A DNA stretch of 64,000 nt from a virus (lineage: Duplodnaviria > Caudoviricetes). The stretch's first letter is position 1. Each line of letters begins with the position of its first letter. This document shows, one piece after another, positions 1 through 4,439 of the stretch. The notes under the pieces were generated by a model. That model was not told the origin of the DNA. It searched no databases and saw only the letters and a program-made list of their open reading frames with translations. Where the stretch lies: the IMG/VR virus record IMGVR_UViG_3300025437_000009. One strand, written 5' to 3'. A program made the translations under genes and the position numbers.

Positions 1-26
1 TAATGAACTTTAACTACTAAAACAAT

Positions 27-55
27 AGTATAGCATTTTGGCAATTAAAGGACAA
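27..55 (-). promoter_or_regulatory. sigma70-type promoter (TTGTCC-17-TATACT) firing out of the window's left end
   Basis: Minus strand reads TTGTCC TTTAATTGCCAAAATGC TATACT; 17-bp spacer resembles those at 2464-2492 and 33552-33580. Confidence 0.6.
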
Positions 56-67
56 CCATAATAAACA

Positions 68-141
68 TGGAGCGGGATAAGGGAATCGAACCCTCGTTCT
101 CAGCTTGGAAGGCTGGAGTAATACCATTATACGAATCCCGC
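68..141 (-). tRNA. trnG: tRNA-Gly(TCC)
   Basis: GCGGGAT...CT TCC AA...GGTTCGATTCC...ATCCCGC T CCA; cloverleaf, encoded CCA, 74 nt. Confidence 0.95.
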
Positions 142-147
142 ATTGTT

Positions 148-221
148 TGGCGACCCTCCAGGGAATCGAACCCCGATCTGCGGTTTTGGAGACCGATGTA
201 ATGCCATTATACCAGAGAGTC
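148..221 (-). tRNA. trnW: tRNA-Trp(CCA)
   Basis: GACTCTC acceptor pairs with GAGGGTC; loop CTCCAAA; TTCGATT T-loop; G discriminator plus CCA; 74 nt. Confidence 0.93.
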
Positions 222-226
222 ATACG

Positions 227-302
227 TGGAGCGGGAAAGGAGGTTCGAACTCCCGACCTATACCTTGGCAAGGTATCGCTCTACCAGCTGAGCTATTCCC
301 GC
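227..302 (-). tRNA. trnG: tRNA-Gly(GCC)
   Basis: GCGGGAATAGCTCAGCTGGTAGAGC; stem ATACC/GGTAT around TTGCCAA; encoded CCA; 76 nt. Confidence 0.97.
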
Positions 303-311
303 TTTGAAACT

Positions 312-395
312 TGGTGGAGCATCCTGGGATCGAACCAGGCATGTCAAAGACGGCGGATTTACAGTCCACTGCATCACCGTTGATGCTTCTGCTCC
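312..395 (-). tRNA. trnY: tRNA-Tyr(GTA)
   Basis: GGAGCAG/ATGCTCC acceptor; loop CTGTAAA; long variable arm as expected for bacterial Tyr; encoded CCA; 84 nt. Confidence 0.93.
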
Positions 396-407
396 TGTGT
401 ATTGTAA

Positions 408-436
408 AGTATACTAGTATATATGCCCCGTGTCAA
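408..436 (-). promoter_or_regulatory. sigma70-type promoter for the Tyr-Gly-Trp-Gly tRNA array
   Basis: TTGACA-CGGGGCATATATACTAG(17)-TATACT, 12 nt upstream of tRNA-Tyr. Confidence 0.8.
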
Positions 437-693
437 GTGGGGTGGTAACCCGAATGGACGTTTACCCGCTCGTCATCTAGTATACTTTAGAATACCCTCT
501 CTTTCGAAAGGATATGCTAGGGCTATACCCCAGCCTGTAATTTTTTACACCACACAAGGTGCTCCATCCCACAGTCCGCCCATTTAGCTGTTTATAGTGT
601 AGCAAGGATCTCGTTCCCTATACCACTTTACTGCCGATCAAAGATAGTCTGGCCAAAAAACGTACCAGTCATCTTCATAACCTCAATCCACTT
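435..693 (-). ncRNA. candidate structured non-coding RNA (~260 nt), family not recognised
   Basis: No long ORF. Terminal AAGUGG(688-693)/CCACUU(435-440) helix. Internal hairpins GUGGUAUAGGGA/UCCUUGCUACAC, GCUGGG/CCUAGC, AUAUCCUUUC-GAAA-GAGAGGGUAU, GACG/CGUC, CUGG/CCAG. Confidence 0.55.
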
Positions 694-694
694 A

Positions 695-865
695 TCAGCG
701 TGAGGAGTATTTCGACCCCCTTGCAGACTCCTGTAACTTCGCGGCTTCTGCTAATGCTTTGACTTGAGCTTCTGCTCTTGCTACCTTTGCTTCCATTAGT
801 GCAACTTTTTCTTCGTGTGAGAGGACAAAGTGTGATACGTTTCGTTTTTCGTTCTTATGTTCCAT
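695..865 (-). CDS. small hypothetical protein, 56 aa (not in ORF track): MEHKNEKRNVSHFVLSHEEKVALMEAKVARAEAQVKALAEAAKLQESARGSKYSSR
   Basis: Translated by hand; strong RBS GGAGAAGGAAA before ATG; Ala/Glu/Lys-rich helical core; TGA stop. Confidence 0.7.
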   Translation of the reverse strand: MEHKNEKRNVSHFVLSHEEKVALMEAKVARAEAQVKALAEAAKLQESARGSKYSSR

Positions 866-883
866 TTTCCTTCTCCTAAAAAT

Positions 884-916
884 AAAAAACCCCGGAGTGT
901 TTAATTCCAGGGCTTT
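884..916 (-). terminator. intrinsic terminator (attenuator 3:4 hairpin)
   Basis: GCCCUGGA-AUUAAACAC-UCCGGGGU followed by a U-tract. Confidence 0.85.
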
Positions 917-959
917 AATTAAAATATGGTGTAAAAATATATACTCTAATTAAAACCCT
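909..959 (-). promoter_or_regulatory. antiterminator helix (2:3), mutually exclusive with the 884-916 terminator
   Basis: AGGGUUUUAAUUA (959-947) pairs 13/13 (one G-U) with UAAUUAAAGCCCU (921-909), which includes most of the terminator's 5' arm. Confidence 0.7.
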
Positions 960-1068
960 CAACGTAATCGCGTTCGCTATTAATCATTGGGCATACTGCT
1001 GACCAATAGGCTAACCCGCCTAATGTTGGCTGTAATTTTGCGGAATGATTAAAAGTGTTCGTTCTCAT
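946..1068 (-). CDS. leader peptide, 40 aa (not in ORF track): MRTNTFNHSAKLQPTLGGLAYWSAVCPMINSERDYVEGFN
   Basis: Translated by hand; ATG 9 nt after a consensus -10; TAG stop overlaps the antiterminator 5' arm. Confidence 0.6.
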   Translation of the reverse strand: MRTNTFNHSAKLQPTLGGLAYWSAVCPMINSERDYVEGFN

Positions 1069-1077
1069 AATTTAAGT

Positions 1078-1106
1078 ATTATAGTTTATTTATCTTTTTA
1101 TGTCAA
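1078..1106 (-). promoter_or_regulatory. perfect-consensus sigma70 promoter with a TAAATA late element nested in the spacer
   Basis: TTGACA-TAAAAAGATAAATAAAC(17)-TATAAT; TAAATA at 1087-1092. Confidence 0.85.
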
Positions 1107-2236
1107 CCAATATAGATATCTTTTTTGTTAAATTTGCCCAAACAGTAGAGTCTAGTGTTTAAAGGGCTTAGCCCTACCATTACCCCATGTTTGTAGTCTA
1201 ACAAGCTTCGATCAACCGACGTTAAACTTTGTTTAATATGCCAGCGCCAGCCGTCGAAGAATCTTCTATTGTAGCGTACAACCCAGAAGTCAACTTCTTG
1301 CATGATCGAACCCGAAAACTTATCTGTTTGAAAAGTGTGTATGTTATACTCCGGGTAACAAACTCGAATATATGTATCACGAGGAACGCTATGACCCCTA
1401 GTTATTTCTTGAGTTATCAAAGCCATTTCATCTGCGTTGGCTGTTGTTTCGTAGTAGTGCTTTAGTTCGTGTGCTTGGGCTATAGCAAGCTCGGGCATCT
1501 GTGGAGACCAAAAGAAAGCTTCGCTAATACGTTCTGGATCAGGATCTGCAGGTCCAATTCTATCAACAAAGTACGAATAAAAATTACCGTCTTTGATGTG
1601 GCACATAGTTTTTTCAAAACCATAGATGACGCCTACAGATTTTCCTTGCCTTACTGCTTCACACTCCCATTCACTTTTTCTACTGTATCTAAAAAAGGAT
1701 CCCATGCTTAGATAGTGTCCGCCCTTTTTTAACTTTTCTTCGTTAAAATCATGTTCGTATTCTTCAGAATAATCATCAATACAAATACGTGTATTGGGAA
1801 ATCTTTTGGCAACGTCTTCTAAGACCGGTAGTACTGCATAGTCGTACTCACTGCTGTGATTTATATTGCTAAAATCAGTTGGGTTAGCCGGAGTATATTT
1901 TTTCTGTGCTAAAGGCCAACGTGTGTATACTTCATCTACATGAATGCCATTTGATAAAAAACTATAAAGAGTAGTCCAGGAATCACTGCCGCCACTAAAG
2001 TTTATCACAATATAATCGTAGGTGTCTCGAAGTTGCTGTGCTCTTAATTTATATAATTCTTGCAAAGTTCCTGCGGGACGTTTAGTCCAATTACAGGTAG
2101 AAAATACTTCATCATAAAAATTAAAAACTACGGGATTACCAGTCTTAGATGCAAATTGAAGTGCTTCAAGTTTGTTGGTATAGACTGTGCCACCTACCTC
2201 GTAATGACCATAGTTATTATTGTTTTGGATTATCAT
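1103..2236 (-). CDS. PP-loop (adenine nucleotide alpha-hydrolase-like, N-type ATP pyrophosphatase) protein, 377 aa
   Basis: VINFSGGSDS matches the SGGxDS PP-loop. Start moved to ATG 2236 because the track's start (2284) lies inside tRNA-Leu. Confidence 0.65.
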   Translation of the reverse strand: MIIQNNNNYGHYEVGGTVYTNKLEALQFASKTGNPVVFNFYDEVFSTCNWTKRPAGTLQELYKLRAQQLRDTYDYIVINFSGGSDSWTTLYSFLSNGIHVDEVYTRWPLAQKKYTPANPTDFSNINHSSEYDYAVLPVLEDVAKRFPNTRICIDDYSEEYEHDFNEEKLKKGGHYLSMGSFFRYSRKSEWECEAVRQGKSVGVIYGFEKTMCHIKDGNFYSYFVDRIGPADPDPERISEAFFWSPQMPELAIAQAHELKHYYETTANADEMALITQEITRGHSVPRDTYIRVCYPEYNIHTFQTDKFSGSIMQEVDFWVVRYNRRFFDGWRWHIKQSLTSVDRSLLDYKHGVMVGLSPLNTRLYCLGKFNKKDIYIG

Positions 2237-2254
2237 GAGAAGAGTTTCTAAATT

Positions 2255-2339
2255 TGGTGCCCCAAGCGAGACTCGAACTCGCACACCTTACGATACTGGC
2301 TTCTAAGACCAGCGTGTCTACCAATTCCACCATCGGGGC
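2255..2339 (-). tRNA. trnL: tRNA-Leu(TAG)
   Basis: GCCCCGA/TTGGGGC acceptor; CTGGT-CTTAGAA-GCCAG; long variable arm; encoded CCA; 85 nt. Confidence 0.95.
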
Positions 2340-2363
2340 AATACTTTACTTATACTACAAATT

Positions 2364-2451
2364 TGGTGGGCCGGGAGGGACTTGAACCCACAATGAGCTT
2401 TCGCTGGTCGATTATGAGTCGACTGCCTGCAACCAATACGGCGTCCGGCCC
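2364..2451 (-). tRNA. tRNA with CAT anticodon, most likely Ile2 (lysidine type), with a long variable arm
   Basis: GGGCCGG/CCGGCCC, GTCGA-CTCATAA-TCGAC; C4:G69, C5:G68 and C29:G41 pairs; no initiator features; 15-nt variable region AGC-GAAA-GCT; 88 nt. Confidence 0.8.
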
Positions 2452-2463
2452 AACTAAGCAACT

Positions 2464-2492
2464 ATTATATACTATTTGCGATTAAAGGTCAA
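2464..2492 (-). promoter_or_regulatory. sigma70-type promoter for tRNA(CAT)-tRNA-Leu-PP-loop gene
   Basis: TTGACC-TTTAATCGCAAATAGTA(17)-TATAAT. Confidence 0.8.
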
Positions 2493-3670
2493 CGACGTTG
2501 ACGTACCGGCTCTTTTGTCGAAGATCTGCGTGCTCTTGGTGCAGTTGCGTTGGCTTTTGCAGGTTGATCACCAGTTTGATTTAGGCCTCCGCGAAGAAGA
2601 TTACCATTTTTATCAACTAGTACAACATCCTTGGTACCACGTGTACCAAGGGCACGTTTTAGTGTCAGTGCCTGTGGACGTAAGCCACGATATCCAATAG
2701 CTTTACCAGGACGGCTTGCACTATTACCAATGCGCCAAACCATTAAATGGCTTTCTGGAATATCAGCTTTGGTTTTGATAACTGTGTGGCATTCAACAGT
2801 AATATTCTTACCTTCTTGCTTAAAGTGGTGTGGTTTAAAATCTTGAATAACAATACCACCTTCAGGATTAATGTCTGTACCAAAGATAGCTCGCATAGAT
2901 TCTTCTTCAGTTGGTTCTACTACAATCTCTTTGTTGAGTCTGTAGTATTCACGTCCAAGATCATCTGTCAACTTGTCTAATTTTATAGCACCTTGAGATA
3001 ATAGATCGTCAATAATCTTTCTAGCTTTAGCTCCAAAGGAACCTTCAGCACTTTCCCAACTGGCGGCACTTAATTCTTTGATGCTGATTGGTAAATTTTT
3101 TGTTTTACTGCGTAGTACAACGTCAGCTTTTTTAATACCGCCGGTAGCATGTCTTCCAGGAGTTCCTCCAGTTGACTCGACTTCTACAGCATCATGAATA
3201 GTAATGCTTTTGCCGCGAGTATCAACAAAGGTTACATTTATTGAGCCGTATTTTTCAATCATACTGGCCATCATTGCGTCCAAGACAAATTCATTTTCTT
3301 TACCAGCAGATTTATCTGCTTGCTGACCCACGTCTTTGACAGAAATATTAACAGGACTGTTGTCAAAAATAATGACGCCAGCAGAGCTAATATTTGGAAT
3401 ATTTGCGATACGTGGGTTAGCTTTTGGTGCAACTTTTTTTAGGATCTGTAGAATATTTGCCAAGATACTTTGACGATACTTGTTTTTTAATTGACCATCG
3501 GGTATTTGAACTAGTGGCTGTAGTTTGTTACCATTTACTTTTACGTTATCGTAGCCGGCCTTTTTTAATAACTCAAGAACGCCTGTACGATCAATTAGGG
3601 GTTGGACAGATGGTTTTGCTGGTGCTTTGACAGCTTCGTCAAGGATATTAATTAATTCGCGCATTTTCAT
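2489..3670 (-). CDS. hypothetical protein with PD-(D/E)xK nuclease-like motif, 393 aa
   Basis: GKENE...KKADVVL...ISIK; start reassigned to MKMRELINILDE (3670), 7 nt after a TAAATA box. Confidence 0.5.
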   Translation of the reverse strand: MKMRELINILDEAVKAPAKPSVQPLIDRTGVLELLKKAGYDNVKVNGNKLQPLVQIPDGQLKNKYRQSILANILQILKKVAPKANPRIANIPNISSAGVIIFDNSPVNISVKDVGQQADKSAGKENEFVLDAMMASMIEKYGSINVTFVDTRGKSITIHDAVEVESTGGTPGRHATGGIKKADVVLRSKTKNLPISIKELSAASWESAEGSFGAKARKIIDDLLSQGAIKLDKLTDDLGREYYRLNKEIVVEPTEEESMRAIFGTDINPEGGIVIQDFKPHHFKQEGKNITVECHTVIKTKADIPESHLMVWRIGNSASRPGKAIGYRGLRPQALTLKRALGTRGTKDVVLVDKNGNLLRGGLNQTGDQPAKANATAPRARRSSTKEPVRQRR

Positions 3671-3677
3671 AATACAG

Positions 3678-3683
3678 TATTTA
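3678..3683 (-). promoter_or_regulatory. T4-type late promoter core TAAATA
   Basis: TAAATA-7 nt-ATG(3670), no SD between. Confidence 0.55.
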
Positions 3684-4439
3684 GTCTGTAATTTGATAAA
3701 AGTCTTTGTCCAGCCAAGCAACTACTGTATCTTCTAAACGTGCATATCCATACTTAGTTACGCTACTAACAATACTATCATTGACTAAATTGCGGTCAAT
3801 TATGTCGTGCCAACTAGCGTGTTCGGGCAAGGGCTCATGTTCTGTAGCGTATACCGCTGCTTGTAGCCAAGGAGTCCCTGGTTCACGATAAAAATACGCA
3901 TCTCTACAGTCAAATCCGCTGATGGCCAACATATAGATAAGATTCAAAAGGTTATAACTGTAGTATTGGTGACTATGATTACTAATGATCATTTGACTGC
4001 GTCTATGGTCCCAATAAGTAGTCTGTGGTATAGTTAGCACTAACATACCGTTGACCGTCATAGTTGATTTCCATGTGGCCAGACATTTTAAAGGATTTCG
4101 AGCATATTGAAATGAATCATGTGCCCATAATAGATCAACTTGTCTAGGGATAACTCGTTCCTCAAAATTTCCCTCAATTGGGTGTACATTAGGTAGTGCT
4201 AGTATGCTTGGATCAATCTGTTGAATATTTTGATCAACTGCATAAACAATGTAATTGTGGAATTCCGGAGGATCATCTCTAGTTTGTAGTGTAGCCCACC
4301 ATTTAGCGTCAAATCCGGCACCGCAACCCATGTCTGCTACTACAGTTAAACTATCTAAATAATCATCATACTTGTAGATTAGATCTAAAGTTTTTCGACT
4401 GTGCTCGTGACTTTCGTCGGGATTTTTAAACAGGCCCAT
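3681..4439 (-). CDS. class I SAM-dependent methyltransferase
   Basis: VADMGCGAGFD motif I; VYAVD; DLLWAHDSFQY; GMLVLTIP; no DNA-MTase catalytic motif. Confidence 0.85.
   Translation of the reverse strand: MGLFKNPDESHEHSRKTLDLIYKYDDYLDSLTVVADMGCGAGFDAKWWATLQTRDDPPEFHNYIVYAVDQNIQQIDPSILALPNVHPIEGNFEERVIPRQVDLLWAHDSFQYARNPLKCLATWKSTMTVNGMLVLTIPQTTYWDHRRSQMIISNHSHQYYSYNLLNLIYMLAISGFDCRDAYFYREPGTPWLQAAVYATEHEPLPEHASWHDIIDRNLVNDSIVSSVTKYGYARLEDTVVAWLDKDFYQITD

Follow-up and report, generated by a model that had tools for sequence, protein, structure and literature searches.

Computational evidence for a probable ribosome-operated attenuator at the head of tRNA arrays in uncultivated freshwater phages

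Can a short open reading frame (ORF) in front of a phage tRNA array report on the supply of the very tRNAs that are encoded behind it? The control of phage tRNA genes has been little studied, the tRNAs being seen as codon supplements or as substitutes for host tRNAs that defence nucleases destroy. The question is raised by a window of 64,000 nucleotides, the whole stretch of DNA analysed, from the virus record IMGVR_UViG_3300025437_000009. The phage is novel and myovirus-like, and it carries genes for sheath, tube and portal; a DNA search of the phage GenBank collection with the window returned matches to tRNAs only and no relatives. All positions given without a locus number are those of the window, and all features of the window described below lie on its minus strand. 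A reading made from the sequence alone had matched four of six consecutive codons of a leader ORF to four downstream tRNA genes and had proposed that loss of these host tRNAs stalls the ribosome and boosts the locus. Indeed, the minus strand from 1020 to 1003 reads GGC GGG TTA GCC TAT TGG in frame, as codons 17 to 22 of the ORF at 1068..946, TGG is the sole Trp codon of this ORF, and tRNA genes for Tyr(GTA), Gly(GCC), Trp(CCA) and Gly(TCC) are present at 395..68.

The unit starts with a sigma-70 consensus promoter at 1078..1106 (TTGACA-17 nt-TATAAT, 12/12 matches), and promoter and spacer motif are kept in 15 unique relatives. The promoter-spacer motif had 0 matches elsewhere in the window, with a pattern whose two-base gap also misses the leader's own promoter, and a second copy is possible. 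The 40-codon leader ORF (946..1068) is near-leaderless, with its ATG 9 nt past the -10 box and no Shine-Dalgarno (SD) sequence, and ends with TAG at 948..946. Within the ORF, folding predicts a long, irregular hairpin (hairpin 1; 975..1057), possibly a pause hairpin, with the six flagged codons (1003..1020; G17 G18 L19 A20 Y21 W22) at its tip. In the predicted fold, TAGGC (1022..1018) pairs with GCCTA (1011..1007), so that the GGC and GCC codons stand on opposite strands of the apical stem, GGGTTA forms the hexaloop and the partner of TGG is a CCA further upstream. One long hairpin is also predicted in the leaders of most relatives, with z-scores mostly from -1 to -4. The last leader codons and the stop codon lie in the 5' arm of a second hairpin (hairpin 2; 909..959), a candidate antiterminator with a 19-bp stem. 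An intrinsic terminator follows at 878..912; its GC-rich stem of 7 bp (912..906 with 896..890) encloses a 9-nt loop and is followed by a T-run at 889..878. Hairpin 2 and the terminator overlap, the CCCT at 912..909 being common to both.

The first cargo of the unit is a helical 56-aa ORF with a strong SD sequence directly after the terminator (695..865). Its homologues were found in 6 viral contigs; it is missing in some relatives, in which a structured RNA then adjoins the terminator. Searches of Pfam and PHROGs with the leader and the 56-aa ORF gave no match, and no relatives of a neighbouring 377-aa protein were found in the viral contigs. The conserved structured RNA itself occupies 437-694, between the 56-aa ORF and the tRNAs; at two related loci that lack the 56-aa ORF (L008 and L010) it directly follows the leader terminator, and relaxed ARAGORN sometimes calls a false tRNA-Cys within it. 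Contigs from metatranscriptomes carried chiefly tRNA genes of other organisms, and the depth over the terminator region was low.

Relatives were collected in three ways. Six viral contigs with a leader unit were reached through the 56-aa protein, 15 unique units by a scan with the promoter motif and several hundred loci by scans with the terminator motif. Of the 259 terminator units in viral contigs, 174 are preceded by a short leader ORF, corresponding to 130 unique leader peptides, and 76 by ordinary long ORFs, many of which are capsid-like C-termini. Metagenomes add 74 unique leaders to these 130. More than 200 leader units were found in uncultivated freshwater phages. The leader was the only open frame of the six in 15/15 first relatives. 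In these 15 units the ATG stands 9-10 nt past the -10 box, except in one SD-led and one tandem-promoter variant, Trp is codon 19-24, and the distance from the stop codon to the end of the T-run is 56-62 nt. The same position of the ATG, 9-10 nt past the -10 box, was found in 84/130 leaders, and the remaining leaders start further downstream. The stop codon is always within or just before the antiterminator arm. Leader dN/dS is 0.3-0.7, with changes evenly distributed over the codon positions, and the constraint on the amino acid sequence is weak.

The two competing helices are conserved as structures. Ten of 18 consensus pairs of hairpin 2 have compensatory changes, and the observed values were reached in 0/500 shuffles; for the terminator, 4/11 pairs are compensatory and 99.4% of the cells are paired. 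A GACCC segment is common to both helices. Two mutually exclusive helices, both conserved, bear the signature of a switch. In predicted folds, the median probability of the terminator, P(terminator), was 0.12 behind leader ORFs vs 0.99 behind ordinary genes (Mann-Whitney P = 1.6e-23), and by this modelling sequestration of the terminator is specific to leader units. When a ribosome was placed at the stop codon of the window's leader by constraint folding, P(terminator) rose from 0.19 to 0.98. In a model with the ribosome moved along 45 leaders, the terminator was off for every position between the start codon and about 10 codons beyond Trp, and P(terminator) went to 0.99 with the ribosome on the last ~8 codons or the stop. 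The outcome was not uniform: in constraint folding of 58 leaders, 19 switched cleanly, 12 terminated regardless and 16 were not freed at the stop. Taken together, anatomy and comparison, both computational, lend good support to a ribosome-operated attenuator heading the tRNA region.

How would such an attenuator work? Transcription would start at the consensus promoter, and a ribosome would load at the ATG almost at the 5' end of the transcript. A ribosome that reaches the last codons or the stop would melt the 5' arm of hairpin 2, which would free the CCCT and let the terminator fold, and transcription would stop. If the ribosome is absent or delayed earlier, hairpin 2 would be kept, no terminator would form and transcription would read through, first into the 56-aa gene and then into the structured RNA and the tRNA genes. 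The codons most sensitive to delay would be X-Y-UGG, that is, positions -2 and -1 and the Trp codon, on the 3' strand of the apical helix; in the window this proposed sensor triplet is GCC-TAT-TGG (1003..1011), and family-wide the positions before Trp covary with the first downstream tRNAs. The tRNAs for these codons would be those that come first from the locus, here Tyr and Trp, and the switch would thus report how well these tRNAs are supplied and act back on their synthesis. As for Gly-Gly-Leu, these codons would make up the apical stem and loop and not the sensor. We give an even chance to this reading, in which the 40 codons encode the leader peptide of a transcription attenuator operated by the ribosome, with X-Y-UGG codons that sense the first-supplied tRNAs. 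Translation of the frame, stalling within it, the direction of regulation and a link to host defence are what we infer, and to name anticodon-nuclease defence specifically, as the sequence-only reading did alongside starvation, is pure conjecture.

The tRNA genes in question were examined with ARAGORN and Rfam. The first sub-cluster (68..395) comprises tRNA-Tyr(GTA) at 395..312, tRNA-Gly(GCC) at 302..227, tRNA-Trp(CCA) at 221..148 and tRNA-Gly(TCC) at 141..68. The Tyr gene scored 33.9 bits with Rfam, just above threshold, and was also found by relaxed ARAGORN, but default ARAGORN missed it, as it did in several relatives; in phages, default runs will therefore undercount tRNA-Tyr. A freshwater metagenome contig of 175,896 bp has 0 mismatches to the window over the 1106 nt compared and carries ~26 tRNAs within 10 kb downstream, i.e., ~22 beyond the four of the window, among them Leu(TAA) and Ala(TGC). 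The four tRNAs are just the first sub-cluster of a larger array that is cut by the edge of the window. The ~26 tRNAs cover essentially the full set of amino acids, all 20 of which occur in the leader; an exclusive match of the leader to the four tRNAs thus no longer holds. Tyr is the commonest first tRNA in related arrays.

The sequence-only reading had cautioned that the tRNAs have their own promoter. In the window this is borne out by a second promoter-like site (408..436; 11/12 match) directly upstream of tRNA-Tyr, but not in most relatives: only 9% have a match of at least 10/12 in the 110 nt before the first tRNA (1% in shuffled controls), and 91% are without a sigma-70-like promoter there. 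Since such promoters are rare among relatives, the first tRNAs seem, family-wide, to depend on transcription past the leader terminator. The related arrays also hold unusual genes: a tRNA with a CTA anticodon, of the amber-suppressor type (L008:1637-1715, plus strand), tRNAs with A34 anticodons, Leu(AAG) and Ser(ACT) (L134:5478-5554 and L070:2087-2179), and a predicted permuted tmRNA (L147:5905-6292).

If the leader senses the first tRNAs, its codons should follow the array when the array changes. For each leader, the score recorded whether the first non-Trp tRNAs encoded in the 3 kb downstream include a tRNA for the residues before Trp, and it was compared with permuted pairings of leader clades and arrays. 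The first 36 leaders gave P = 0.004-0.29. In a replication with 48 new leaders and the same parameter grid, P was 0.0008-0.006 with the first 3-4 non-Trp tRNAs. A scan of positions singled out -2 and -1 from the Trp codon. With all 99 leaders, at the level of clades whose independence is imperfect, the pair (-2,-1) reached z = 3.3-3.7 and P = 0.0003-0.002 (first four non-Trp tRNAs), and seven control position pairs in the same 99 leaders gave |z| < 1.7. The signal at -2/-1 holds at the codon level with strict wobble (P = 0.0004-0.025) and at clustering thresholds that yield 6 to 30 clades, and it withstands changes of the tRNA-calling threshold, distance-based definitions and the omission of any single clade. 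Sister pairs in which each leader was used once were concordant in 14 cases and discordant in 2 (P = 0.002), with all seven controls balanced; when repeated contrasts across one split were counted once, ~10 concordant pairs stood against 2 discordant ones (P ~0.02). The metagenome set, with 18 usable new leaders that are mostly of one subfamily, gave P = 0.14 at -2/-1 and an unexpected strong hit at +3/+4. Since the latter looks spurious, state-level permutation can overstate significance, and we therefore rely on the clade-level and sister-pair tests. By these tests, a coupling of the two codons before Trp to the first tRNA genes is statistically supported, with internal controls.

The correspondence can be followed in individual arrays, all confirmed by ARAGORN. 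A CAA-GCC-TGG leader precedes an array with Ala, Trp and Gln(TTG), an ACA-GCC-TGG leader one with Ala, Trp and Thr(TGT), and a TTG-TGG leader an array that starts with Leu(CAA). In sister phages the codon is TTA or CTA where the tRNA is Leu(TAA) or Leu(AAG), respectively. An S-I-W leader goes with Ser and Ile arrays and a T-Y-W leader with a Tyr-first array. Leaders with AF, AC, AH, AT and GS do not match their arrays. The window's own AY state does not discriminate, matching its own arrays at 0.39 and other arrays at 0.41, because Tyr and Ala tRNAs are common at array heads generally. GCC is without an Ala tRNA in the first sub-cluster of the window, and the Ala(TGC) further downstream would read GCC by relaxed wobble only. 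In one subfamily, S-A-W (L032, L042, L048, L055, L069), the residue at Trp+4 is Tyr where there is an early tRNA-Tyr and Asn otherwise, a second local correspondence of codon and tRNA outside -2/-1 that is seen in few lineages.

These data divide the six codons that had been put forward as a sensor. The comparison of leader codons with downstream tRNA sets that had been suggested as a check came out in favour of the codons before Trp, here GCC-TAT, but not of positions -5 and -4, the Gly-Gly of the window, for which P was 0.23 and 0.19; leader-level counts there do lean the same way as at -2/-1. In close relatives GGG is replaced by GTG (Gly-Val) and both Gly tRNAs are retained, and GGGTTA forms a variable hairpin loop; Gly-Gly-Leu is best given up as part of the sensor, and what is left of G-G-L-A-Y-W is the proposed X-Y-UGG element, here Ala-Tyr-Trp. 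The sequence-only reading had itself warned that a match of four in six may be chance, which is probably right for the Gly-Gly part but runs against the covariation at -2/-1. At least four of six codons read by the four tRNAs occur in 7% of 40-codon stretches from the window's own genes, and a 6-codon window with one codon for each of the four tRNAs in 0.46%, both definitions having been picked after the fact. From the 15 first relatives, in which Gly-Gly and Tyr vary, the tRNAs stay and some leaders are without Tyr before Trp despite a tRNA-Tyr, we had taken the whole match for pure chance, a view that was revised after the larger tests. The interpretation as a whole is thus supported in part, as regards an attenuator with an open frame, competing and covarying helices and a stop codon in the antiterminator arm, but not as regards Gly-Gly-Leu. 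That this attenuator is self-referential, its X-Y-UGG sensor keeping pace in evolution with the leading tRNA genes of the array, we consider plausible at somewhat less than an even chance. A shortage of tRNA, caused for example by cleavage or decay of host tRNAs during infection, would then increase transcription of the array, and the near-complete amino acid set of the leader might serve as a broader check on translation capacity.

This amino acid set is also an argument for the strongest alternative, an attenuator that senses translation capacity in general, in which a stall at any codon leads to read-through and the match to the tRNAs reflects ancestry and chance. The window's leader contains all 20 amino acids (P = 0.003 for 40 residues), as do 51/130 leaders. 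Among 58 and then 130 unique leaders of ~40-44 codons, the mean number of distinct amino acids was 18.4-18.75 vs 16.3 expected, Cys occurs in 74-80% of leaders vs 27% expected and His in 93% vs 47%; these composition figures are inflated by relatedness, and the rare residues are at differing positions among clades. Single copies of Cys, His and Trp are far more frequent than expected, and exactly one Trp is found in 110/130 leaders. The leaders are without runs of one codon and contain most amino acids once, i.e., neither tandem nor enriched regulatory codons were found in them. With ~26 phage tRNAs any codon finds a match, and the leader as a whole is not enriched, in comparison with ordinary genes of the window, for codons read by the full tRNA set (0.47/0.80/0.90 vs 0.43/0.72/0.86 with exact pairing, standard wobble and relaxed wobble, respectively). 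The folding model is likewise indifferent to the site of the stall before the last ~8 codons: at equilibrium with a moving ribosome, nothing makes -2/-1 special with respect to other codons before the antiterminator. There may be a kinetic reason, in that the three sensor codons lie within the most stable local helix. The non-discriminating AY state and the result with the third, metagenomic set also fit a general sensor. However, such a sensor would not account for an association that is specific to -2/-1 when seven control pairs with the same phylogeny are null, that was replicated on new leaders and that extends to codons, including a synonymous change of a Leu codon that tracks the anticodon. 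We regard a general sensor as unlikely, though it is the best of the alternatives.

Could the locus contain no regulatory switch at all? The frame might encode a small early phage protein, or the region might give a structured small RNA of ~190 nt that ends in an ordinary terminator. In a conserved helix, GCC-TAT-TGG makes up one strand, with TGG pairing with the upstream CCA in 46/56 predicted folds, and the helix alone could explain conservation at the nucleotide level. The TAGGC:GCCTA pairing and the lower stem are conserved, the peptide pairs K-H/M-F and N-H/M-I are what the two stem strands translate to, ordinary genes, too, end in the terminator motif and its conserved loop, and the centre of the peptide is mildly hydrophobic in some leaders. 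But the terminator is sequestered behind leader ORFs only, the stop codon always falls in or just before the antiterminator arm, and an SD-led gene without its own promoter lies downstream. The dN/dS of 0.3-0.7 without third-position bias fits a protein whose sequence matters poorly, and the covariation of codons and tRNAs would be left unexplained. The absence of any switch is, on this evidence, improbable. More improbable still is an effect of the invariant Trp by way of the nascent peptide, as in arrest of the TnaC/SecM type with the peptide or a small molecule and not tRNA supply as the signal, since the single Trp at codon 16-25 in 56/58 leaders and the W...G-R-V-N-S-I-P-G stretch kept in one subfamily are outweighed by a Trp-to-stop spacing that varies from 12 to 31 codons, widely varying residues around Trp, weak constraint on the peptide and a link to tRNA gene order that arrest would not explain; the conserved motif at fixed spacing that marks nascent-peptide arrest was not found in the leaders.

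The preferred reading, an attenuator whose X-Y-UGG codons report on the first tRNAs, can be compared with known systems. Leader-peptide attenuators control amino acid operons (trpL, hisL, pheL, thrL, ilvL, leuL) and also pheST. The phage leader resembles them in its promoter-proximal short ORF, its terminator with an overlapping antiterminator, the predicted choice of structure by the position of the ribosome and a stop codon placed so that a finishing ribosome favours the terminator. It differs in its cargo, a tRNA array with a small protein and a structured RNA, and in its near-leaderless start. Unlike the classical leaders, it lacks a run of identical codons, the sensor candidate being three different codons, and when untranslated it is predicted to read through and not to super-attenuate. 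T-box riboswitches are untranslated leaders that bind uncharged tRNA directly and control genes of the translation apparatus by a choice between terminator and antiterminator. The phage leader shares this choice as a proposed report on tRNA status, but it contains a conserved ORF, and an Rfam scan of 1..4000 at E <= 1 found tRNAs and sub-threshold chance hits, with no T-box and no other family. The nearest precedent for the start arrangement is found in mycobacteria, in which stalling in leaderless polycysteine short ORFs senses a substrate of translation and controls downstream genes of the operon (Canestrari et al., 10.1101/834739). There, too, the ORF starts at or near the presumed 5' end of the transcript; the mycobacterial attenuators use a run of Cys codons and unmasking of a ribosome-binding site, whereas the phage leader has mixed codons and an intrinsic terminator as its output.

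Phage tRNAs, notably tRNA-Tyr, have been described to restore translation after cleavage of host tRNAs (eLife 2023, PMC10264068; Nat Commun 2024, PMC11555353; Nat Commun 2026, PMC13096335); their abstracts deal with the tRNAs themselves. Our literature search found no sensor that regulates a phage tRNA array. If the proposed reading is true, this would be the first attenuator in which tRNA genes are regulated by a report on tRNA supply, and a classical mechanism of bacteria would be at work in viruses as well. The leader would also provide a compact part of ~230 nt for sensing tRNA depletion. The family is large, freshwater viral contigs containing more than 200 of its units, and both comparative and bench tests of the rule are therefore possible.

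The 9-nt loop of the terminator (897-905 in the window; consensus with neighbours, AAYTAAACAC) is kept across hundreds of units (loci L030-L273), including those behind ordinary capsid-like genes without a leader. Such conservation is unusual for an intrinsic terminator, and the loop may contact a protein or an RNA. Pairing of the loop with the 3' strand of hairpin 1 was considered; it is partial and found in some relatives only, and the idea was dropped because the loop is no less conserved in units with a different hairpin 1 or downstream of ordinary genes. At one locus (L006:2648-3070, plus strand), a decayed second copy of the promoter and of the first two thirds of the leader lies ~1.1 kb upstream of the intact leader unit; this copy has ATA in place of ATG, has lost 1 nt and is fused to an unrelated ORF of 82 aa. 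At another (L025:4529-4660, minus strand), the leader promoter is present in two tandem copies ~100 nt apart, and the segment CCAATAGG between the tandem promoters is complementary to CCTATTGG, which holds the Tyr-Trp codons.
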